Source: an uncultured virus (IMG/VR IMGVR_UViG_3300028591_000018) (Duplodnaviria > Heunggongvirae > Uroviricota > Caudoviricetes). From it: a DNA stretch of 64,000 bases. The stretch lies in IMG/VR virus record IMGVR_UViG_3300028591_000018. The stretch is one strand, 5' to 3'. The position numbers and the translations under genes were made by a program. Of the stretch, positions 3,895-63,999 are shown one piece after another (the first letter of the stretch is position 1; every line of letters begins with the position of its first letter). Under the pieces are notes generated by a model, which saw only the letters and a list, made by a program, of their open reading frames with translations, was not told where the DNA came from and searched no databases.

Positions 3895-4259
3895 CCTAAA
3901 ACCTCATCATGAGGAGGGAGCTCTCCGCCATTATTTTTCAAATCCTTTACCGCAGATTCGATATACATCACGATCACATCAACATCCAGAGTAATACCCT
4001 TTGCCGCAAGGTACTTTTCAATTACGTTGATTGCATATTTCTTTTTCTCTTCACCTTTTTCTCCGCCGAAAATCTGCTCTGCAGCCTCAACTGCTTTACG
4101 AGAGACAACATTAAGAATCTCATAAAGTTCGGGGTTCTTATCTTTTACTTTTTTAAAAATTTCAATGCACTTTCCGATCATCCACCCGGCTCCGGCACTA
4201 ATCAGGATCGGGAGGGCTGTCTCGAGAAGAATCTGCAAAATTTTACTCAAAAGTTCCAT
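3891..4259 (-). CDS. Phage holin (LL-H-like)
   Basis: N-terminal TM segment and AVEAAEQIFG..GEEKKKYA...IESAV pattern. Confidence 0.8.
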   Translation of the reverse strand: MELLSKILQILLETALPILISAGAGWMIGKCIEIFKKVKDKNPELYEILNVVSRKAVEAAEQIFGGEKGEEKKKYAINVIEKYLAAKGITLDVDVIVMYIESAVKDLKNNGGELPPHDEVLG

Positions 4260-22836: not shown

Positions 22837-23000
22837 TTGTCTGAATATTAGAGCTGTCCTGGCCCACCTTCTATTTCCGCCATAGTAAAGGAGAAAAAAT
22901 GTAAAGGAGATTGGCCCATGAAAAATAGAAACCTATGAAGAAAGGGAGGATCTTCATTGGAAAATAGAAAGTGGGATAGGCCGGCCCTAATCTCAGACAA
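22837..23000 (-). ncRNA. Structured leader/ncRNA with anti-SD segments
   Basis: Nested inverted repeats (TTGTCTGA/TCAGACAA, ATTAGGGC/GCTCTAAT, CCCACTTTCTATTT/AAATAGAAGGTGGG) enclosing three CTCC(C)TTT tracts. Confidence 0.55.
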
Positions 23001-23070
23001 AAAAATAAGAGGCCATGTACTGATCATGGCTTCTTAAAAACAAAAGAGAGAAGAAACTATCTTCTTCTCT

Positions 23071-23098
23071 CTATAAAAGGGCATGTTTTTTATGCGAA
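23071..23098 (-). promoter_or_regulatory. Phage promoter motif copy 1
   Basis: TTCGCA-TAAAAAACATGCCC-TTTTAT-A. Confidence 0.7.
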
Positions 23099-35113: not shown

Positions 35114-35141
35114 CTATTAAAGGAGCTGCAAATTACGCGAA
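35114..35141 (-). promoter_or_regulatory. Phage promoter motif copy 5
   Basis: TTCGCG-TAATTTGCAGCTCC-TTTAAT-A. Confidence 0.7.
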
Positions 35142-35146
35142 ATTCG

Positions 35147-35278
35147 AAAAAATAAAAGGATACTCAGTTAATCCGTAATTCCCTCTTATACGAAAGTTCA
35201 CCCTGAACATTGGCAAACGATCATTCATCAATTGGATGTTCGGTCCTTTGATGCGTCCTTACAAATCTTCTTTTCTCC
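35147..35278 (-). ncRNA. ORF-less promoter-terminator unit (~130 nt)
   Basis: Follows the promoter at 35277-35304 and ends at TTTTATTTTTT; no convincing RBS-ORF. Confidence 0.45.
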
Positions 35279-35304
35279 AATTAAGGCATTGCGAATATTG
35301 CGAA
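35277..35304 (-). promoter_or_regulatory. Phage promoter motif copy 6
   Basis: TTCGCA-ATATTCGCAATGCC-TTAATT-G. Confidence 0.6.
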
Positions 35305-41320: not shown

Positions 41321-43234
41321 TTATTCAACTTTCATCCAATCACGTAACTTAAATTCCTCCTTACGAGGCTCACTGTAGCTCCGTACGGGTGTTAAAAATC
41401 CGACAATGCGCTGATAAGTCGTCACCTTCGGACCGCCGCAGATCGGGCAGACATCGCCGTAAAAACCATGGTTATGAGCACAAGCGCTGATTCGGGTGCA
41501 GAAGGCAAAATACTTCACACCCGACTTTGCCAGTTCCTGCAGCAGGTCCCAGGCAATATCAAATGACCGGAACGGACTGTCCAGGTTGATATGACAGATG
41601 GATCCGCCGGTGCAGGCTTCATCGATCCTGGCGCTGATGCGGATCTTGTTTTCGATCGAGGTCCGCACGGCCAGCGGAATCCATTGGTTAGCATAGAGCG
41701 GGAGCTCATATTTCTCATCCGGGAAAAATATCTTATCCTTTCGCATGAGTTTTGCCGCGGCGGATTCCGCAGGAACGGCTTCGATGTTGATCATATAATC
41801 ATGATCTTTCTTGAATTCATCTTTGATCTCATGAATAGTTTTCAGGATCTGTTCGGCAAATATCAATCCGTCTTCGGTATAGGTGGTATAGCCAAAACTG
41901 TCCTTACGAACGCAGCCGAACCGATCCAGTGTCTCATAGATCCCGATGATGCCGATCGTGGAATATAATTTATCCATTTCCACGATGCCTTTATCGAAAT
42001 TCTTCATCAGCCCTTTTTCAATATTCCGCTGAATGATATGACGGACTACATCCAGTGCCTTCAGGCAGGTTAGTACCCGATCTTCCAGAATATCAAAGTA
42101 TTTGTCCGTATCGCCATTTGATTCATAGGCAATACGGGCCAGGTTGATGGTGTTGACTTTTTCGGAGCCGACTTTCAGCGCAGTCCCGCCGATGGAGTTC
42201 ATATAAAGATCCTTGACATTATTAGAAAGCCGGCAGCAGGAGCTGAGGCTGGTAACGGAGTCATCAATGAAGAAATTGCTGTCGCACCACTTCATGTTCT
42301 GTTCGCAGGCCCATTCAGCAAAGGCCCTGTCCACAAAATTGCCGTCCTTGTCCTTCAGCAGACTGATCGTGTTGACCGGATAAGTCATCATGTTCTTTTC
42401 CCGAATCTCATGCATAGTATCCATGAAGAGTTTCTGGAACTCCATGATCTGCTCGAGTTCATCATACATCAGCTTTCCGTCCGGAAATACCATTCCGCCA
42501 AACAATGCTTCCAGATAGGGATGATCAAAAATAGAAGTGTTCGTGAAAGCGGACTGGATGTTGCCGCGCAGAAACGGCTGGTTCAGTGCATAGATCAGAC
42601 GCTGAATCTGCTGCTTGGCATACTTGATCGGAGTTTCTGTATAGTAATCCTTCTGAATATCACGGTCCCAGAAGTAATACATATAGATGATCAGATCCGG
42701 AAGGCCGACCGCACCGCTGGAACTGTTAGCGCAGAAGCTGATGAACTCCTTGACAAAGTCAACGAAAGTCCCGAGATGCTTCGGGGGTTCCGCATTGAAA
42801 TTATCAATGAAGAACAGCCCTTTTTCGGCAAGATCCTGCAGGGATGAGGCCCAGCAATAATGCAGATAGCTCGCATGATGGGCATCATGCATGTAAAGAG
42901 CTCCGGTCCATTCCAGTTCGAGCCAATGCTTTGCGGTATCCAGACCGTATTTTTTCTTCATTTCATAAAATATCTTGTTGAACGCCAGCAGCTTCTGGTG
43001 AGGCTTTGCCATCTCATTCAGCAGCGTCACTACAGATTTATTGGAGACATTCGCATTAGCATCTACTGAGGCATCTGCTACTGTCTCTGTGTCAATAAAA
43101 TTATCAATAAAGTCAGTATAGTCGAGCTGACTGTCTGAAAGCCCGTTCAGCATAGCCAGCCCTTCTCCGTGAATTGATTTGAGTTTTGTAAATTCGTATG
43201 AAAAATCAGGATCCAGTTTGATGTTGATCTTCAT
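41321..43234 (-). CDS. nrdD: Anaerobic (class III) ribonucleotide reductase
   Basis: YMHD, SCCRL, VNTINLARIA, EAVPAE, Zn Cys pairs and glycyl-radical loop QRIVGFL. Confidence 0.92.
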   Translation of the reverse strand: MKINIKLDPDFSYEFTKLKSIHGEGLAMLNGLSDSQLDYTDFIDNFIDTETVADASVDANANVSNKSVVTLLNEMAKPHQKLLAFNKIFYEMKKKYGLDTAKHWLELEWTGALYMHDAHHASYLHYCWASSLQDLAEKGLFFIDNFNAEPPKHLGTFVDFVKEFISFCANSSSGAVGLPDLIIYMYYFWDRDIQKDYYTETPIKYAKQQIQRLIYALNQPFLRGNIQSAFTNTSIFDHPYLEALFGGMVFPDGKLMYDELEQIMEFQKLFMDTMHEIREKNMMTYPVNTISLLKDKDGNFVDRAFAEWACEQNMKWCDSNFFIDDSVTSLSSCCRLSNNVKDLYMNSIGGTALKVGSEKVNTINLARIAYESNGDTDKYFDILEDRVLTCLKALDVVRHIIQRNIEKGLMKNFDKGIVEMDKLYSTIGIIGIYETLDRFGCVRKDSFGYTTYTEDGLIFAEQILKTIHEIKDEFKKDHDYMINIEAVPAESAAAKLMRKDKIFFPDEKYELPLYANQWIPLAVRTSIENKIRISARIDEACTGGSICHINLDSPFRSFDIAWDLLQELAKSGVKYFAFCTRISACAHNHGFYGDVCPICGGPKVTTYQRIVGFLTPVRSYSEPRKEEFKLRDWMKVE

Positions 43235-56877: not shown

Positions 56878-57531
56878 AAAATCCTCCTTCAGGAATTCAA
56901 ATATTCAAGGTCGCGCTCCCAGTGAAGCGCTAATGCATCTTTGTCAGTCAAACCGATAAACTCGTCATTATCAAAGGTCAATTCATTTGGATAATATGTG
57001 AACAGAAGCGTCCAATCTTCTTTTTCATCATGCCAGATAAAAACACCCATTAAAGATGGGTCTGAAATACATTTTCTGATTTCACATTTAACAATGACGT
57101 CCATGTCCATACTAAATTTCCTTTCTGTCAAATACTGTCTCCCATCGCATTTTCGGGAGCGGTTTCATACGAAGCGCCCACATGATCTGGCGCACAGTAA
57201 CAGTTGGGTAAAGTCCATCCTTACAAGGCTTTGCCCGTTTTTCAAAAAACTCCGGAAAGTTCGGATTCAGATAAATATCTGCAGCCAGATTTCTTCCGAT
57301 TTCACGCCAGTAAGTGCATTTTGTTTGCTGACTGAAGTATTGCCGGATTACAGCAATCCCCCGATCCTTGACCAAATATAATGTGCAGCGGTCATACACC
57401 GGATGCTTACACAAATAAAGCCGGCCATAAACTCCCGGTCCATGGTCGGAAGATTCGTAATGGTATCGCATAATGCCCTAAAAAAAATAAGAGGCTATGC
57501 ACCGAAGTGCACAACCTCTATAAAATATCGT

Positions 57532-58065
57532 TTAACTTCTTTTCTTAAACATTCGATCGAAATCGAATGCATGCCGGGAAATATCTTTCCCCGATGCAGA
57601 GGTGATCGTCTCACCTCCTGCCTCAAACGTGTTCTGGCGCTGCATCAATGCGCCATAACATATGAATGATACTACGGTACCTGCAATGCTCAACAGAGCA
57701 TTGAGGAAACCATTTCTCTTAATAGATTTAACCTCTTCTACCCGAAGAGCAATCTCCTCCTCGCGGCACTGCTTATCGAACTCGATTTTTTCAAGTTCGG
57801 CTTCGGATTTTTTCTTTTCGAGTTCAAGCCGTGTATGTGCGACTTGTACCTCTTTCATCGTTTTTAACGATGAAATCAATTTTTCCGATTTTTCTGGCTG
57901 TTCATCCGAACAAGCCATGGCCTTTTTCAATAGTTCATCCGACGCTTCTGCGTAGATGTCTTCCGGAATTTCAACGATTTCCGGGTTTTCAACAATTTGT
58001 GCCGCTTCTTCAGCGACACTTATTTCATTCACAGATTTATTATTTTTTTGATACTTCTTTCCCAT
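57532..58065 (-). CDS. Coiled-coil protein with C-terminal TM (cassette gene)
   Basis: Own promoter, hairpin and terminator; AAAGGAG RBS. Confidence 0.7.
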   Translation of the reverse strand: MGKKYQKNNKSVNEISVAEEAAQIVENPEIVEIPEDIYAEASDELLKKAMACSDEQPEKSEKLISSLKTMKEVQVAHTRLELEKKKSEAELEKIEFDKQCREEEIALRVEEVKSIKRNGFLNALLSIAGTVVSFICYGALMQRQNTFEAGGETITSASGKDISRHAFDFDRMFKKRS

Positions 58066-58112
58066 TTTTCTCCTTTTTTACAAAAAATAAAGAGCAGATC
58101 ATCCGTGTCTGC

Positions 58113-58140
58113 TCTTTAAAGGCGTTGATTTTCTCGCGCT
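58113..58140 (-). promoter_or_regulatory. Phage promoter motif copy 11, with GAGCAG hairpin at 58092-58114
   Basis: AGCGCG-AGAAAATCAACGCC-TTTAAA-GAGCAG. Confidence 0.65.
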
Positions 58141-58494
58141 CAGTTTTCGTATTTAATTTTTACATCAAATACAGCGCTCAGTGAAAAATCAAGATTTTTC
58201 AGGGTATCCTGATCTTTCAACTCCAGAAGCAACTCTGCTGACCCATCGGAATGCACAATTTTATAAAGTGTTCCGATCGGCTCTGGTTTTACAGATTTTT
58301 TGATCAATCTGCCAATACACCAGCCGATAGCTCCTCCGATCGCAAACCAGATCGGAATCGGCACCGCTATAATGAAATTCTCAATCTCCTGAATCATGAA
58401 AACTCCGTATAAAAACTTTTTTCATTTTTCCTCCCCCGGGAATTTTTGCATTAAGAATATACCATTTTGAATTGTCACCTGAGTACGGAACTTT

Positions 58495-58827
58495 TCAGTC
58501 AGATTCATATCCTCTTTCTATCAGTTCAAGAATTGCATAATTTGCAATATCTTTCAAAGTATCTTCGATGCTTTCATCAGCAACATGCACATCGTGACTA
58601 CTATAAAGCCTTTTCAAACGATTGAGTTTATCGGTGAGACGATAGCAGATTGAATTCGGAAATTCCTTCCGAAGTTCCGCAAAACTGTCGCCATAATCTG
58701 CATTTTTCCGTTCATACAAATCTGTCAGTTCCTTACAGATTTTTTTATGCTTATTAACCTTATTATGTTGTTTACCCATTTCCATTAATTCATCACAGTA
58801 TTTTTTATCATATTCGGTGGTATTCAT
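58495..58827 (-). CDS. DUF1599 / nucleotide-modification-associated domain protein
   Basis: KNADYGDSF, RLTDKLNRL, ESIEDTLKDIANYAIL. Confidence 0.8.
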   Translation of the reverse strand: MNTTEYDKKYCDELMEMGKQHNKVNKHKKICKELTDLYERKNADYGDSFAELRKEFPNSICYRLTDKLNRLKRLYSSHDVHVADESIEDTLKDIANYAILELIERGYESD

Positions 58828-59211
58828 TTTTTCCTCCTCCATTTTGAATGCCCTATTAATGCCGAAACGGTTACTGCTTGTTCTATAATATTCACAAATC
58901 ACATTAAAACACATAGCCAAGCTCCACCAATCCACTGATAATATCATCCAAATGCTCATCTGCAAGCCGTTGAATGGCTCCGCGCATTCGTTCCGGGTCT
59001 TTTTCCATTAAACATTCATACAATTTATTACATAGCCATGCTTTTTCATAGCAATCAATAATCTTCCGGTTAGCTTGTTTTTCCGGTTGATATACCGCAC
59101 GGGAATATGATCCTCTGAGGCCCTTCACAAGCTTCTCGGTAAGCACCACATTGTACTCGTTGATTCGTTGATTTGTGATCGGATTTACTTCATCAACCAT
59201 ATAGATTTTTC

Positions 59212-59535
59212 TCATTTTTTCTGATCCTTTTCATATTGTCGTTTGAAGAATTCAAAAGCCTTGTCGACCGTAAGATAACCGACTACTTCATCACCATATT
59301 CTTCTTCTGTAATATCAAAACCCATCGCTTCCAGAAGTCCGTACTCATGACCATATGAACCCATATTGCACACAACATCCCCACATCCAGGCTTCCTAAG
59401 TTCCCATTTTCCATCTGAGGAATACCGGATCTGTCCGCCAAATATTGGATTATCATCACATAAGAATTCATGCGGAATTCCGGCGATTTCAAGTTCTTCA
59501 TGCAATTTCTGTAACGGTTTAATTAAATCTGTCAT
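59212..59535 (-). CDS. Hypothetical protein
   Basis: MTDLIKP with GGAGG RBS; GSYGHEYGLLEAMG..VVGYLT. Confidence 0.7.
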   Translation of the reverse strand: MTDLIKPLQKLHEELEIAGIPHEFLCDDNPIFGGQIRYSSDGKWELRKPGCGDVVCNMGSYGHEYGLLEAMGFDITEEEYGDEVVGYLTVDKAFEFFKRQYEKDQKK

Positions 59536-59559
59536 TTTACCTCCAATAAGATCCAATAG

Positions 59560-59658
59560 AAAAAAAATAAAAGAAGTTGAACCGAATCGAACGGTTCCAG
59601 GCGGGCAGACAAGACCCGTCGCCCACTCACAAACTTTCGTTTGCTTTAACTTCTTCTC
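59560..59658 (-). ncRNA. tRNA-like small RNA (non-canonical)
   Basis: 8-bp closing stem, GAAA-tetraloop arm, central arm and GAACCG-TTCGATT-CGGTTC T-arm; own promoter (copy 12, 59657-59684) and T tract. Confidence 0.65.
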
Positions 59659-59683
59659 ATTAAAGTCCATGTTAATATTGCGT

Positions 59684-59826
59684 AAAAAATAGCAGGAGAT
59701 GTGTTAACTATAAACTCTACCTGTTGTGCAGCTATCTCACAACAGCAACTTTATAGCAACGGATATCTCCTGCTTAATTTAATGCCAGCTCATTTTTTCT
59801 CCTTTCTTTAAGTGAACTAGCTCCTA
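59684..59826 (-). ncRNA. Small RNA with SD and MSWH minigene (59779-59793)
   Basis: Promoter copy 13 at 59823-59850; AAAGGAG-AAAAA-ATG AGC TGG CAT TAA; long AGCAGGAGAT/ATCTCCTGCT terminator stem. Confidence 0.65.
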
Positions 59827-59848
59827 TTTAGACTATGTTTTTCATGCG

Positions 59849-59954
59849 AAAATAAATAGGAGAAGCGCCTGCAATTAACGCTTCTCCTTTCAAATAATTA
59901 ATAATATTTGTACAGTGCTAGGTCATTTTTCCTCCTTCCTATTGCACTCTCATC
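59849..59954 (-). ncRNA. Small RNA with SD and MT minigene (59918-59926)
   Basis: Promoter copy 14 at 59953-59980; AAGGAGG-AAAA-ATG ACC TAG; AGGAGAAGCG/CGCTTCTCCT terminator. Confidence 0.65.
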
Positions 59955-59979
59955 ATTATAGAAGATGTTTTTTTCGCGG

Positions 59980-60071
59980 AAAAAATAAGAGCCTTTGCAA
60001 CGACTCTTATTTTTAATAAATATCTTTGCACCTCCTTTCTTCATAGGAACCTGCTTTCGGGTATGCAGGTC
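59980..60071 (-). ncRNA. Small RNA with orphan SD
   Basis: Promoter copy 15 at 60070-60097 (TTCGCA-N14-TATAAT); ACCTGC/GCAGGT hairpin; AAAGGAGGTG; AAAAATAAGAG/CTCTTATTTTT terminator. Confidence 0.6.
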
Positions 60072-60097
60072 ATTATAGAGAATGTAAATCTTGCGAA

Positions 60098-60514
60098 TTA
60101 TTTCCGCAATTTCGAGAGGATCCAGAAAAATCTTCGAAAGCTTTCATAATACGTTTCCTTACAGCAGGGAACGTCCATACGAGCCGTCAGGTATTCATAG
60201 GAAATTCCTTCTGTGACTCCTTTGAAAATATAATTTCCCAAATCCTCCGAACAAGCTTTTGCCGCCTTATCAACCATATCCAGATGGTCTGTCAGCAATT
60301 CCCGCCGCAGCACAGCCGTAAGAACCGGATCACTCGGCCCCGCGGATTTTCCAATTTTTTCGGAATACGGCGATCCCATCAGGCTGATCATTTTCAGCTC
60401 TTCCTTCCATTCCGGATACTGAAGGCAAAAATGCTTCAGCTCATAAAACCGATGTCTGCTGATCCAGTATGAACTGCGCTTTGAGATCTCAGGACGAATA
60501 TTGGTACCCATCAC
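60098..60514 (-). CDS. Putative transcriptional regulator (RinA/ArpU-like)
   Basis: ELKHFCLQY.EW..DPV..A; C-terminal HTH-like ISYEYL..TYYESFRRFFW. Confidence 0.5.
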   Translation of the reverse strand: MMGTNIRPEISKRSSYWISRHRFYELKHFCLQYPEWKEELKMISLMGSPYSEKIGKSAGPSDPVLTAVLRRELLTDHLDMVDKAAKACSEDLGNYIFKGVTEGISYEYLTARMDVPCCKETYYESFRRFFWILSKLRK

Positions 60515-60753
60515 CGCTCTCCCTTCCAGACAAAGCCTGTATGCTCGAAAAGCAGTTTGGGCGAAATATAATAATTGATCCGCCCGTATTTGCTGTTCAT
60601 TTCCTCAATAGAGGTGACCAGTTTGCCGTTCCGTGTTGCGTTCCCGATAGGTAGCCATCCACAGATCAAACCGGCCCGCACCCAGCACGCATCCTTCCCG
60701 TACGCCCGCGCTGCCACGGACACCGGTACATTACCGTTAGAATACTCTTCCAT
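60511..60753 (-). CDS. Small winged-HTH / excisionase-like protein
   Basis: VPVSVAARAYGKDACWVRAGL..LPIG..YYISP. Confidence 0.55.
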   Translation of the reverse strand: MEEYSNGNVPVSVAARAYGKDACWVRAGLICGWLPIGNATRNGKLVTSIEEMNSKYGRINYYISPKLLFEHTGFVWKGER

Positions 60754-60836
60754 AAATTTCTCCTTTCGTGAGTCTTCTATCTCCGAAACTTATTCTATGA
60801 TAGCCAGGCGTAATCTAAAATAAAAACTTATGTTGA

Positions 60837-60890
60837 AAAAATAAAAGGAGTTGTAAAAATAAAAGGAGTTGTAAAAATAAAAGCCCTTGT
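60837..60890. repeat. 18-bp tandem repeat (2 exact copies and 1 variant)
   Basis: AAAAATAAAAGGAGTTGT twice, then AAAAATAAAAGCCCTTGT. Confidence 0.85.
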
Positions 60891-60908
60891 GGGGCTCAAC
60901 TTCCTTTC

Positions 60909-61085
60909 TTATTCAAATTTTGCTGAGATCTTCTCAGCAAAGTCCATTCCGATTTCGAACGCTTCTCCATAAAGCGTCATAAACATCTTGAAATACCACC
61001 GACGAAGCGGTGGAATACAACAAATAATTATGGACAAAACTGTCCAAATCAATAAAAATCCAAAATAAATATTTATAAAATTCAT
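60909..61085 (-). CDS. 58-aa membrane peptide (not in ORF track)
   Basis: MNFINIYFGFLLIWTVLSIIICCIPPLRRW...; AAAGGAG RBS; cassette context. Confidence 0.7.
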   Translation of the reverse strand: MNFINIYFGFLLIWTVLSIIICCIPPLRRWYFKMFMTLYGEAFEIGMDFAEKISAKFE

Positions 61086-61131
61086 CTTTTTTCTCCTTTT
61101 TTAAAACAACGAGCAGATCATCCATGTCTGC

Positions 61132-61159
61132 TCAATAAAGGAGTTGTAAATTTTGCGAA
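61132..61159 (-). promoter_or_regulatory. Phage promoter motif copy 16, with GAGCAG hairpin at 61111-61133
   Basis: TTCGCA-AAATTTACAACTCC-TTTATT-GAGCAG. Confidence 0.72.
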
Positions 61160-61183
61160 AAATAAGAGGCCTTGCGGCCTATC

Positions 61184-61348
61184 TTATTCAATCGTAATCG
61201 GGGTGATCACGATTTCTTCTACCACGATTTCTTCCAGTTTTGGTCCGGGATCAAGTCCCGGGGTTTCATTAATTTTCTCTGATCCGCTGCACGCGGATAA
61301 AGTAATGGCCATTATGGCCAGCAATACAATGATAAAGAACTTTTTCAT
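61184..61348 (-). CDS. Small lipoprotein (cassette gene)
   Basis: MKKFFIIVLLAIMAITLSAC lipobox; promoter copy 17 at 61372-61399. Confidence 0.75.
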   Translation of the reverse strand: MKKFFIIVLLAIMAITLSACSGSEKINETPGLDPGPKLEEIVVEEIVITPITIE

Positions 61349-61438
61349 TTTATCCTCCTTTAGCTCTTTCTTCATTAGAGGATCTGTTCTTATCGCGAAA
61401 AAAATAAGAGCCCTTGTGGGCTCCATTTTGATTCGGTT

Positions 61439-61768
61439 TCATTTCGCCTGCTTGGCCCAAAATCCCATGCCAAGCTCCGATGCATATTCATGCATCAGAT
61501 CTATGTCATTATATGACCAATGTACCCATTGGTACTTGGCCATATCAGAGAACCTATCAGGTTCTCCTTCCGGTGCGGTTTCCCACACGCCTTCGACCTT
61601 AGCGGTCGCAATAATCTCACCTGCATTATTATGCAGGTAGAAGTTTGTTATTGGTTCCACAACGTATTTTACGTTGCGGTTTAATACATACAGTGCCATC
61701 AGGCTGACGACACAAACAACTGCTGCGATAACAGCAGTCTTCATCATAATGGAATTAAACTTTTTCAT
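61439..61768 (-). CDS. Membrane-anchored cassette protein
   Basis: N-terminal TM; promoter copy 18 at 61801-61828; GAGCCCACAAGGGCTC terminator. Confidence 0.7.
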   Translation of the reverse strand: MKKFNSIMMKTAVIAAVVCVVSLMALYVLNRNVKYVVEPITNFYLHNNAGEIIATAKVEGVWETAPEGEPDRFSDMAKYQWVHWSYNDIDLMHEYASELGMGFWAKQAK

Positions 61769-61788
61769 TTTTATTCTCCTTTCAAATT

Positions 61789-62217
61789 TTAAGTTTTCTT
61801 CCATAGTAGACCTTGCGCATATCGCGACCAGAGATAGATACTCAGGTAACTTGCACCGCAGCCGGCAGTAATACCGCTTTGGATTTTTACAAAAGTATTA
61901 CGGTCATAGTGTTTATATGGAAGAAGAAAAGAAGGAAGAGTAAGAAAAACTTTTCCGCATTTTTGACAGCGGTATTTTGGAAGATAGATCCAATATCGGA
62001 ATCCATAAAAATCAATCATTTTGCGTTTGCGATATCCGTACCGCCACATGGCAAGGCCGGTATTGCATTCAGGACAGCATACGGGTTTAGTGTATCGAAG
62101 ATGATACCCATCAGAATAAACTATCGGCTCGTATTCGATCATGATCATGTAAAAAATAAGTGCATAATACATACGAAAAAATAAAAAGGATAAGTTACAA
62201 ATTTGTGATCCGTTCAC
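61789..62217 (-). CDS. Zn-ribbon protein (DUF6431-like); start uncertain
   Basis: CPEC..YGYRKR..RCQKCG..LPSFLLPYKHY. Confidence 0.6.
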   Translation of the reverse strand: MNGSQICNLSFLFFRMYYALIFYMIMIEYEPIVYSDGYHLRYTKPVCCPECNTGLAMWRYGYRKRKMIDFYGFRYWIYLPKYRCQKCGKVFLTLPSFLLPYKHYDRNTFVKIQSGITAGCGASYLSIYLWSRYAQGLLWKKT

Positions 62218-62374
62218 ACCGGATCATTCATAAATCCTATCCTGTAAAAATTCAAGCTACAATTTTGCTCTCCACGGGTCATGTAGCCAACCTCTGTTTA
62301 TGACCGTTCCTTTCCAAGTTTACGGTTAACCCAATTTCCGGTAAGGCACTTTCATAAAGCACACCTTTCCCTCA
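62176..62374 (-). ncRNA. Structured ~200-nt RNA unit
   Basis: Promoter copy 19 at 62372-62399; several hairpins; AGGATAG/TTATCCT closing stem and T tract. Confidence 0.55.
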
Positions 62375-62433
62375 CTATAGTCCATGCGCACATCGCGAAA
62401 AATAAAGAGCCCTTGTGGGGCTCGTTTCAAAGG

Positions 62434-62655
62434 TCAGTGATGACCTTTGAACAGAAATACTTCTAAGTCTGAGTCGTAGTCCAACTCTGACTCTGAAACC
62501 TTTTTTACTGGCTGCTTTTCTGCAGCCTCTACGTCTTCGATATACCCTTTGATATATCCAAAAACCCCAATTAACGTGACAGTAGCTGCCACAAAACAAT
62601 AAATTGTATTTATTGTTTCAATAATTTTTTTGATTATTTTAAAAAATTTTTTCAT
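62434..62655 (-). CDS. Single-TM cassette protein
   Basis: AAAGGAG RBS; promoter copy 20 at 62704-62731, GAGCAG hairpin at 62683-62705, terminator at 62398-62423. Confidence 0.7.
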   Translation of the reverse strand: MKKFFKIIKKIIETINTIYCFVAATVTLIGVFGYIKGYIEDVEAAEKQPVKKVSESELDYDSDLEVFLFKGHH

Positions 62656-62778
62656 ATTTTTTTTCTCCTTTTTAAAAATAAAGAGCAGATCATTTATGTC
62701 TGCTCAATAAAGGCGTTGTAAAAACCGCGATTATAAATTGTAGGAGTATAATAACTTCTACAAGGAGAAAAAATATCA

Positions 62779-63999
62779 ATGCTGATAAAGTGTCCGGAAT
62801 GTGAACTGTCAGTGAGTGATAAAGCCATTATATGCCCTCACTGCGGCTATCCTTTAAAGCCCGAAGCGAAGAATATCAATTACCGATCCACCAGAAGGAA
62901 GCGCCTTCCGAATGGTTTTGGGCAAATATCAAAGATCAAAGGGGCGAACCTTCGTAAACCTTTCCGAGCCATGGTCACGATCGGAAAAACCGACGAAGGA
63001 AAACCCGTATGCCGATTATTACAGCCGGAAGCCTACTTCGAAACCTACAATGATGCTTATCAGGCATTAGTAAAATATAATAAAGATCCATATGTATTTA
63101 GCAATAATTTAACTGTTGGAGAGCTATACGAAAGATGGAGTGAATATCATTTTAAAACAATTTCTGCAGGTGCGGCGACAAACCTTGGAGCAGCCTGGAA
63201 ATACTGCAATTCCATCAAAAATATCAAACTTGTTGATCTGCGAAGTCGGCACATAAAGTATTGCATGGAAGAAGGAACTGTTACACTAAAAAACGGAAAT
63301 ATCAAACATCCCTCAGTAAACATGAAAAACGTGATTAAAGTCATGTTTAATCAAATGCTTGATTATGCTGTTGAATACGAATTGATCGATCGAAATTATG
63401 CCCGAAACTTCTCTGTATCAAAAGAAGACCGTAAAGAGATGGCAGAAAACCGTGAAAGCCATATCCCGTATACTGATGAAGAAATCGAAAAACTCTGGGA
63501 AAATATCAATTTCAATGAAGTTATAGGTATTATTCTGATTCAGTGCTATACCGGTTGGCGTCCGAAAGAACTTGAAATCATGAAAATCAGTGATATTGAC
63601 CTTGAACTTGGAACCATGAAAGGCGGTGTCAAAACCAGAGCCGGCAAAAATCGCATTGTACCGATCCACTCAAGAATCTATGATCTCATTAAAAAGTATT
63701 ATGAAGCCAGTAAAAAATCCGGCAGCGAATATCTTTTTACAATGACCGGCCGCAGCAAACTATTTTCCTACACGAAATTCGATTGGAACCTGAAACAAAT
63801 CAAGTCACAATTAAATCTAAACGACCGTCACCGTCCCCACGATGGTCGTGCGCACTTTATCACCCAGGCCAAAAAATATCACATGGATGAATACGCCATC
63901 AAACGAATCGTCGGACATGAAATCAAAGACCTAACCGAAAACGTCTACACCACCCGAGATCTCGAATGGCTAAAAGCCGAAATCGAAAAAATACCTTAA
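62779..63999 (+). CDS. int: Tyrosine integrase with N-terminal Zn ribbon
   Basis: TGWRPKEL (R), KT (K), HDGR (HxxR), VGH, VYT (Y); AAGGAG RBS. Confidence 0.92.
   Translation: MLIKCPECELSVSDKAIICPHCGYPLKPEAKNINYRSTRRKRLPNGFGQISKIKGANLRKPFRAMVTIGKTDEGKPVCRLLQPEAYFETYNDAYQALVKYNKDPYVFSNNLTVGELYERWSEYHFKTISAGAATNLGAAWKYCNSIKNIKLVDLRSRHIKYCMEEGTVTLKNGNIKHPSVNMKNVIKVMFNQMLDYAVEYELIDRNYARNFSVSKEDRKEMAENRESHIPYTDEEIEKLWENINFNEVIGIILIQCYTGWRPKELEIMKISDIDLELGTMKGGVKTRAGKNRIVPIHSRIYDLIKKYYEASKKSGSEYLFTMTGRSKLFSYTKFDWNLKQIKSQLNLNDRHRPHDGRAHFITQAKKYHMDEYAIKRIVGHEIKDLTENVYTTRDLEWLKAEIEKIP

Follow-up and report, generated by a model that had tools for sequence, protein, structure and literature searches.

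In bacilli, a strong Shine-Dalgarno (SD) sequence near the 5′ end of an RNA stabilizes that RNA even without a start codon, as set out in a review (PMC3997798, citing Agaisse and Lereclus 1996 and Hue et al. 1995). The STAB-SD of cryIIIA mRNA and the polypurine 5′ stabilizer of SP82, both from Bacillus and treated in that review (PMC3997798), place an SD-like sequence near the RNA 5′ end and do not use it to make a conserved protein. The DNA stretch analyzed here, 64,000 nucleotides (nt) of the uncultured Caudoviricetes virus IMGVR_UViG_3300028591_000018 (the window), appears to encode a comparable element on its minus strand, a putative small RNA of ~140 nt that we call unit 3 (~59824-59684). 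Like these stabilizers, unit 3 has an SD-like sequence near its probable 5′ end, and this SD does not serve a conserved protein, the open reading frame (ORF) behind it not being conserved. Unlike them, it carries the SD in the loop of a 5′-terminal hairpin, has a paired start codon behind it, and would be a stand-alone small RNA. By analogy, unit 3 would work most like a STAB-SD-type 5′ stabilizer acting on a small RNA, or like an mRNA-mimic sponge. The reading we favor, with a probability of roughly 35%, is that unit 3 is a noncoding phage small RNA (sRNA) whose 5′ module docks the 30S subunit without productive translation, as a stabilizer of the STAB-SD type, and whose rod-like 3′ module carries the effector function.

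Every element of unit 3 lies on the minus strand, at the positions given in the original prediction, a note made from the sequence of the window in which the element was described as an MSWH minigene RNA. The 5′-terminal hairpin (59784..59821) has a 9-bp stem and a 20-nt loop. In the stem, the 5′ arm GCUAGUUCA (59821-59813) forms nine pairs, two of them G-U, with the 3′ arm UGAGCUGGC (59792-59784); the loop, CUUAAAGAAAGGAGAAAAAA (59812-59793), contains the SD. The SD, AAAGGAG (59799..59805), reads AGAAAGGAG with its flank, which is the standard ribosome-binding site (RBS) context of this phage, and the 12-mer AAAGGAGAAAAA of this context occurs seven times on the coding strand of the window and once on the plus strand. 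Five nt separate the SD from an AUG whose U and G lie within the 3′ arm, and a stop codon follows after four codons (AUG AGC UGG CAU UAA, MSWH; 59779..59793). What unit 3 displays is thus the usual RBS of the phage in an uncommon place, a hairpin loop. The SD would be complementary, with an extended match of 9-12 nt, to the 3′ end of the 16S ribosomal RNA (rRNA) of a presumed Firmicute host; AGAAAGGAG would start ~18 nt from the probable 5′ end.

Beyond the mini-ORF, the RNA folds into a rod-like composite hairpin (59691..59774) consisting of an outer 10-bp stem, in which AGCAGGAGAU (59774-59765) pairs with AUCUCCUGCU (59700-59691), a covarying middle helix of the CUAUAAA type, and a sequence-conserved apical core (59713..59752). 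The core holds the inner hairpin CUGUUGUG (59745-59721), with its GAGAUAGCU loop region, and then GGUAGAGU. By eye, it resembles the 5′ third of a transfer RNA (tRNA) when set against a tRNA of the Faecalibacterium phage FP_oengus, which is a lead only. The base of the rod doubles as an intrinsic terminator, since the G+C-containing outer stem is followed by the U-run AUUUUUU (59684..59690); this ~90-nt multi-stem hairpin and U-run put the transcript end at 59684, and the next promoter-like motif begins at 59682. A simple terminator scanner missed this terminator because its loop limit was 8 nt.

Folding of 59684-59850 (minus strand) with ViennaRNA reproduced all the named helices at −48.4 kcal/mol. 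Shuffled versions of the minus strand averaged −32.35 kcal/mol (standard deviation 3.48), giving a z-score of −4.61, and none of 200 folded equally well; the plus strand folded less well (−39.2 kcal/mol, z-score −3.49). The 5′ module of the window folded alone had an energy of −11.3 kcal/mol and unpaired probabilities of 0.68 for the SD and 0.34 for the start codon. These results confirm the architecture that had been read from the sequence: an SD displayed in a hairpin loop with the AUG in the stem, a 9-bp pairing that includes G-U, and a 4-codon ORF followed by a ~90-nt multi-stem terminator.

To collect homologues, we started from the 138-amino-acid (aa) protein encoded next to the small-RNA units, which had 699 relatives at E ≤ 0.001, ~30 of them closer (60-81% identical); an alignment of 41 of these led to 240 loci from three collections, whereas searches with single flanking proteins had given 0 and 1 loci. 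Among the 240 loci, the small-RNA gap was common to only five contigs, designated L165, L166 (the same contig as L086), L167, L085, and L087; one further locus, L041, has unit 4 alone of the array described below. The hairpin of the 5′ module is kept in all six homologues (the window and these five), with energies of −11.3 to −13.9 kcal/mol and SD unpaired probabilities of 0.51-0.99. In an alignment of the six (A3), 88.3% of 60 pair cells were paired, versus 18-45% when the partner was slid by 1-3 columns. The SD core is retained while other loop positions vary. A start codon (AUG, GUG, or UUG) lies 5-6 nt behind GGAG in five of the six and ~9 nt behind it in L087. It falls in the stem in five of the six, with predicted unpaired probabilities of 0.0 in L167 and 0.3 in L165 and L166, besides the 0.34 of the window; the minimum-energy fold of L085 pairs its GUG.

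Identity between the window and its relatives is 57-80% for the 5′ module and 73-77% for the rod (L167, L085), compared with 68-72% (DNA) and 63-76% (protein) for the adjacent gene in the same relatives. Both modules therefore align at a divergence where neutral sequence should not, which argues that both are under purifying selection. Three other gut samples gave a further hint: among the differences listed, region 59684-59850 had one substitution (59702) and two insertions (59806 and 59829), and unit 2 and the flanking gene differed far more than unit 3. A covariance model of the 5′ module (R2) run against 377 kb retrieved only its six training members, one copy per phage, the next best hit having 17.6 bits and E = 0.12.

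The mini-ORF behaves quite differently from the structures around it. It has four codons in the window (MSWH), L085 (M-NWH), and L166 (MDWP), 11 in L165, two in L087 (M-D-stop), and at least 36 in L167, where it is open to the RNA 3′ end without a stop. The last sense codons also differ, being His, His, Pro, Leu, and Asp in the window, L085, L166, L165, and L087, respectively, and the one conserved codon, UGG, belongs to the stem. Because the length of the mini-ORF is not conserved, it would be the RNA and not the peptide that matters. These comparisons firmly indicate that the ORF is not the selected feature and that unit 3 is a conserved, separately bounded, structured small-RNA gene.

The same data bear on the proposal that MSWH translation makes unit 3 a true minigene. 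Phage lambda bar minigenes act by peptidyl-tRNA drop-off, and their toxicity is seen in pth-defective hosts; unit 3 would likewise sequester tRNA or ribosomes. It shares with bar minigenes a phage-borne strong SD, an AUG, and a stop after only four codons. Other tiny SD-led ORFs occur in promoter-to-terminator units of the clade, namely M-T-stop in unit 2, M-N-stop in the relative G003 (46532; L253 1544), and M-K-stop in unit 1 of L165 and L166 (~3960-4000), in addition to the M-D-stop of L087. In unit 3, however, neither the length nor the last sense codon of the ORF is maintained; the start codon is predicted to be sequestered (unpaired probability 0-0.34), and the L167 version has no stop before its 3′ end. 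Both the MSWH minigene as a functional unit and the bar-like peptidyl-tRNA sink, as originally suggested, are accordingly disfavored, and we regard them as very improbable. A search of the viral_contigs collection for the exact minigene pattern gave 0 matches.

An alignment of the rods of the window, L167, and L085 (A4) contained 31 consensus pairs, 7 of which had compensatory double changes, mostly in the middle helix; the tip was conserved in sequence, with one U-A pair replaced by G-C in L167. Behind the same 5′ module, L165 and L166 have another long hairpin in place of the rod, and L087 has a simple terminator. A covariance model of the rod (R1) searched against 1.83 Mb found only its three training members and their reverse strands, and a rod-tip pattern scan of viral_contigs found the L167 contig only. 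Within the array, clear covariation support exists for two structures, the unit 3 rod and the tRNA-like unit 4.

These features have to be set against the possibility that unit 3 is the remnant of a gene cassette, in which an internal deletion left a promoter, RBS, start codon, a few codons, and a terminator, so that the 5′ module would be functionless and the rod just an elaborate terminator. ‘Empty’ cassettes in which the motif is fused straight to a terminator hairpin do exist (window 23040-23096, minus strand; L038 3920; L046 3024), the RBS context of unit 3 is the standard one, and its ORF length drifts, all as a remnant would predict. Four observations make this decidedly unlikely: the 5′ module matches the neighboring coding gene in conservation, at a distance too great for neutral DNA to align; the SD core persists in a loop that varies elsewhere; a rod with 31 pairs, 7 of them doubly changed, is far more than a terminator needs; and unit 3 was nearly invariant in the three other samples, among the differences listed.

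In the reading we favor, unit 3 would be transcribed independently as a ~140-nt RNA from a phage-specific promoter, starting at the base of the first hairpin. The 5′-terminal hairpin would expose the consensus RBS AGAAAGGAG in its loop and keep the start codon paired; a 30S subunit would dock on the SD and rarely or never translate productively; and the docked SD, together with the 5′-terminal stem, would shield the RNA from 5′-end-dependent decay in a Firmicute-type host. The few codons behind the SD would be incidental. The second module, a 31-bp rod, would terminate transcription with its base, and its conserved tip would be the likely effector, bound by a protein or an RNA. The sequence comparisons bear out the folded structures, the limits of the cassettes, purifying selection on the two modules, and the lack of ORF conservation; transcription, the 5′ end, 30S docking, stabilization, and the effector role of unit 3 are what we infer. 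We favor 30S docking because the SD is under selection and has, at a working distance, a start codon held in a stable stem, and because the L167 version, which has no stop codon, could not tolerate translation. The sister unit 1, with a longer SD-like sequence and no start codon, also counts in favor.

Several points weigh against this reading. Covariation is too weak to prove the 5′ hairpin, although the hairpin is kept: one double change aside, the changes are one-sided or G-U wobbles, and 80 of 500 shuffles reached the observed score. In L087 the start codon lies outside the stem. The effector claim for the rod comes from three sequences, since L165 and L166 have a different rod. The 5′-terminal stem alone could protect the end, making the SD redundant, and both the set of host RNases and the 16S rRNA 3′ end are assumed. 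The 15 nt at 22887-22901, an exact complement, and the corresponding 16 nt of the complete relative G001, both described below, would suit an RNA partner no less than a ribosome. Transcript data give the reading no help, and are no evidence either way: metatranscriptome run X9, containing 16% of the sampled words, gave one 230-nt contig at 59309-59538, in the neighboring gene, and none on the small-RNA units.

Unit 3 is not isolated. It lies in a 562-nt gap on the minus strand between a 138-aa gene upstream (60514-60098, minus strand; phrog_11237) and a 107-aa gene downstream (minus strand), whose start is set at 59535 by a good RBS. Small-RNA units fill this gap, which reads as four consecutive units, each with a promoter-like motif directly behind the preceding U-run. 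The motif consists of CGC, 8 nt, CAT, 3 nt, C/T-T, and an A/T-rich hexamer resembling TATAAT; that of unit 3 (59822..59848, minus strand) reads CGC-N8-CAT-N3-CT-AAATA, then GGA. A strict regular expression for the motif matched eight times in the window (62397, 60095, 59978, 59848, 59682, 35522, 34327, and 23096), always on the minus strand, versus a mean of 0.7 and a maximum of 4 in shuffled sequence. A looser form, CGC-N8-CA(T/G/A)-N3-YY plus an A/T-rich hexamer and then G, occurred 715 times in forward and 58 times in reverse orientation in 245 related sequences (1.65 Mb), being found in loci L002, L003, and most of L005-L244. In these relatives, the motif precedes coding genes, tRNAs, and small noncoding units. 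FP_oengus and an unannotated faecal phage record have it in the homologous region, and one FP_oengus copy drives a tRNA.

The promoter-tRNA units suggest where transcription begins. In all 18 distinct units, ARAGORN placed the tRNA 5′ end 2-5 nt behind the hexamer, at exactly 3 nt in 11 of them, so that the transcription start must, we infer, directly follow the hexamer. By the same geometry, the 5′ end of the unit 3 RNA is likely the GGA at ~59824, three bases ahead of the hairpin. We considered whether the hexamer is a sigma-70 −10 box and ruled this out because tRNA 5′ ends lie only 2-5 nt behind it; the arrangement is unlike that of sigma-70 promoters. The expectation that the element acts at the RNA level held up in this respect as well, since unit 3 has a promoter-like motif and a terminator of its own and is conserved in relatives.

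A candidate for the enzyme that reads the motif is encoded in the window. The 932-aa protein at 21987-19189 (minus strand) matches phrog_4291, has helix-turn-helix or sigma-region-4-like domains at both ends, and contains GADFDGD at residue 540; a PDB sequence search with it gave no match. In bioRxiv 10.1101/842583, its FP_oengus homologue is treated as a putative RNA polymerase, YonO- or crAss-like and with a DxDGD loop, and PMC5467207 leaves open the promoter of the YonO-like phage RNA polymerase. We propose the motif as a candidate promoter for the 932-aa YonO-like RNA polymerase of this phage.

The other three units have the same layout as unit 3, with different contents. Unit 1 (59980..60095; RNA 59980-60071; minus strand) runs from the promoter-like motif through a 5′ hairpin and 12 SD-like nt, AGAAAGGAGGUG, that lack a start codon at a working distance, to a terminator; it has homologues in L085 (980-1085) and L087 (~1735-1850). 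All 12 nt of AGAAAGGAGGUG match what we take to be the Firmicute 16S rRNA 3′ end. Unit 2 (59849..59978; RNA 59849-59954; minus strand) has the motif, a hairpin with GGAAGGAGGAA in its loop, AUG ACC UAG, and a terminator (59888-59858). Unit 4 (59560..59682; RNA 59560-59662; minus strand) combines the motif with a tRNA-like cloverleaf RNA, whose acceptor-like stem and U-run form the terminator. It folds at −36.4 kcal/mol (z-score −4.14) and, in an alignment of six sequences, has 32 consensus pairs, 6 with double changes; among close relatives it is 84-89% identical where the neighboring gene is 68-72% identical. Unit 4 has a GGUUCGAUUC T-arm and lacks a normal anticodon loop. Neither ARAGORN nor Rfam made a call on unit 4, and a scan of viral_contigs with its core pattern returned only the three contigs already known.

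Unit order varies among the relatives: it is 1-2-3-4 in the window and 3-1-4 in L085, and L087 has a unit-3-like element, a real ORF cassette, a unit-1-like element, and unit 4. Such differences fit independent modules better than the leader of one particular gene. The locus is best explained as a tandem array of four small-RNA cassettes, unit 3 among them, within the early region of a temperate phage of the Oengus type.

This arrangement bears directly on whether unit 3 could be a translation-gated attenuator, in which a ribosome at the mini-ORF stop would cover the 5′ arm of the terminator and allow read-through into unit 4 and the next gene. As in leader-peptide attenuators, a short ORF lies directly ahead of an intrinsic terminator; in the window, the stop (59781-59779) and the stem (from 59774) are 4 nt apart, L085 has about the same gap by eye, and the ORF of L165 stops within the stem, that of L167 extending through it. 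Unlike in leader-peptide attenuators, the distance from stop to stem is not conserved, being ~9 nt in L166 and ~27 nt in L087, and every downstream unit has a promoter-like motif of its own, in an order that varies among relatives. No alternative antiterminator pairing was noticed, a systematic search not having been made, and transcription may be by a phage polymerase that need not be coupled to ribosomes. We give this explanation little credence.

Units 1-3 together contain ~7 GGA motifs, and the original prediction also raised a sponge for CsrA. On this account, the several loop GGAs of these units would titrate CsrA or another GGA-binding translational repressor of the host. A GGA lies in the apical loop of a stable hairpin in six of six homologues, the unit 2 loop reads GGAAGGAGGAA, and three such units stand in tandem, so that the likeness to CsrB/RsmZ-type sponges extends to GGA in hairpin loops, small RNA size, and tandem repetition. 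Unlike CsrB/RsmZ, each RNA here exposes one or two GGAs that are indistinguishable from an ordinary SD: every SD of this phage contains GGA, as does any Firmicute-type SD, and of the GGAs of unit 3 one is in the loop, one at the probable 5′ end, and one buried in the rod stem. Neither the extended 9-12-nt match to the 16S rRNA 3′ end nor the kept start codon is needed for CsrA, whose gene is only presumed to be present in the host. We know of no RNA sponge of CsrA in Firmicutes and consider this account quite improbable.

The original prediction had further proposed pairing with 22887-22901, and this proposal had a mixed outcome. On the coding strand, the RNA at 22887..22901 (minus) is an exact 15-nt complement of the SD-spacer-AUG segment of unit 3; the plus strand there reads as an RBS followed by ATG TAA. 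No other stretch of coding-strand RNA in the window is complementary to the 5′ module over a greater length. For unit 1, the joint-longest complement, 14 nt, lies ~45 nt from the same site and is tied with one at ~23460; no complement to unit 2, the rod, or unit 4 is longer than 11 nt. In G001, the loop of its own unit 3 differs at one spacer position, and a 16-nt exact complement occupies the syntenic position, flanked by the homologue of the 23096 promoter-terminator unit and by a VRR-NUC-like gene; the changed position is matched on both sides. In G003, the syntenic complement has 11 nt, and other sites in the G003 genome match at least as well. The inverted RBS is followed, on the opposite strand, by ORFs unrelated to one another (40 aa from ATG in G001, 21 aa in G003, ATG-TAA in the window), and is therefore not obviously kept for a protein. 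What stood of the proposal is thus the exact 15-nt complementarity and its 16-nt counterpart in G001; on the other side, the 12-mer within it is the standard RBS, the site in G001 and G003 is the RBS of a small opposite-strand ORF, and the region is otherwise not conserved.

One explanation built on this pairing is that unit 3 is an RBS-mimic antisense RNA or sponge. Its SD-spacer-AUG segment and the SD region of unit 1 would pair with the CU-rich coding-strand RNA at 22945-22887, which has a triple-terminator checkpoint on one side and the VRR-NUC-like, nuclease, and RNA-polymerase genes on the other, and the pairing would tune read-through or translation at the early-late switch; in a variant, unit 3 would soak up an antisense RNA that targets RBSs of this sequence. 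AgvB and AsxR of enterohaemorrhagic Escherichia coli are prophage anti-sRNAs that mimic mRNA target sites, and unit 3 would resemble them as a phage-encoded small RNA copying a sequence normally recognized on mRNAs, here an RBS; unlike AgvB and AsxR, unit 3 has this CU-rich stretch as its only candidate partner. An exposed seed with extended complementarity, as in base-pairing sRNAs, is present, at a target site whose transcription is presumed. The length of the match relative to other complements in the window, the nearby unit 1 complement, the 16-nt match to the different loop of G001 together with the 11 nt of G003, and the unconserved opposite-strand ORFs all agree with this explanation. 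It is called into question by the nature of the segment itself, because the full 15-mer is common to two other genes and the UG of the AUG, part of the pairing segment, sits in the stem. Moreover, region 22868-23010 folds no better than shuffles on either strand and is conserved in G001 and G003 only at the promoter and terminators, the G003 match is unexceptional, and only one informative position covaries. The plus strand of 22868-23010 nearly repeats the RBS regions of units 1 and 3, with an SD in a hairpin loop, an ATG-TAA, and SD-ATG-two codons-stop, and the minus strand is CU-rich. A real RNA-RNA pair and a consensus RBS present twice, in opposite orientations, would both account for these comparisons, and we consider the antisense explanation rather unlikely.

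A related and, in our view, unlikely alternative treats units 1-3 as a battery of RBS-mimic RNAs made early by the YonO-like polymerase; the RNAs would present perfect but untranslatable RBSs, titrate readers of RBSs, and so time the early-to-late switch. The titrated reader could be the 16S rRNA anti-SD of the 30S subunit, a GGA-binding repressor, or the CU-rich RNA stretch before the nuclease, RNA-polymerase, and late genes. If this were true, the RBS-mimic units and the tRNA-like unit 4 would form a phage RNA toolkit aimed at the translation apparatus of the host.

Neither Rfam nor full-text searches on Oengus-like phages and phage SD-decoy RNAs yielded a design in which a displayed but locked RBS is joined to a conserved structured domain. 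Across the whole window, Rfam gave no match at gathering score; the best in 59540-60110 at E ≤ 10 was rli43, with 22 bits against a gathering score of 100, and 57000-63000 had nothing relevant at E ≤ 1. The 562-nt gap had zero blastn matches in 50,697 phage records. The portions of the Oengus papers we drew on, including bioRxiv 10.1101/842583, do not mention promoters, tRNAs, or small RNAs. The small RNAs of gut Firmicute phages are almost unexplored, and this locus offers a compact array of four separately promoted ones. If the SD loop of unit 3 docks ribosomes or pairs with a late-operon leader, it would represent a new way for a phage to stabilize or deploy a regulatory RNA; even if it does not, unit 3 would define a new RNA family. 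The wider locus may be the larger prize, with its candidate promoter for a YonO-like polymerase, tRNA-like unit 4, and array of RBS-bearing RNAs.

The rest of the window is that of a phage or prophage, with genes for a terminase, portal, prohead protease, primase-polymerase, NrdD, and tyrosine integrase, nearly all on the minus strand, which is the coding strand. The nearest named relative is FP_oengus, with 54% identity across a 1332-aa polymerase, and public runs labelled as sheep and goat gut metagenomes contain this stretch. The proteins flanking the small-RNA gap gave only weak, sub-threshold hints against NCBIfam. A 48-aa ORF at 59898-60044 (minus strand) was dismissed as a gene; it lacks an SD and crosses a terminator and the next promoter-like motif.

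Promoter-linked units elsewhere show some recurring features. Most coding cassettes open with a near-identical 5′ hairpin of the CAGACAYGGAUGAUCUG type, for example behind 62729, 61157, 58138, 56555, 54007, and 35522 (minus strand); the order is the conserved hairpin, a U-rich run, an A-rich stretch, GGAG, a run of A, and ATG. This hairpin looks like a shared leader or attenuator element. A further short noncoding cassette, with the motif, a ~120-nt RNA, and a U-run, occurs at ~35140-35302 (minus strand) in the window, at 41584 in G001, and at 72916 in G003, and its GUAAGGACGC segment is conserved in the three phages. Of the promoter-linked tRNA-like genes among the matches listed, 11 of 14 were labelled tRNA-??? 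by ARAGORN, having an abnormal anticodon loop (e.g., L006, L021, L027, L049, L050, and L066). Finally, a 106-aa protein encoded inside the phage at 56557-56877 (minus strand) matches the Pfam family PF09652, Cas_VVA1548, with E = 1.3e-17.

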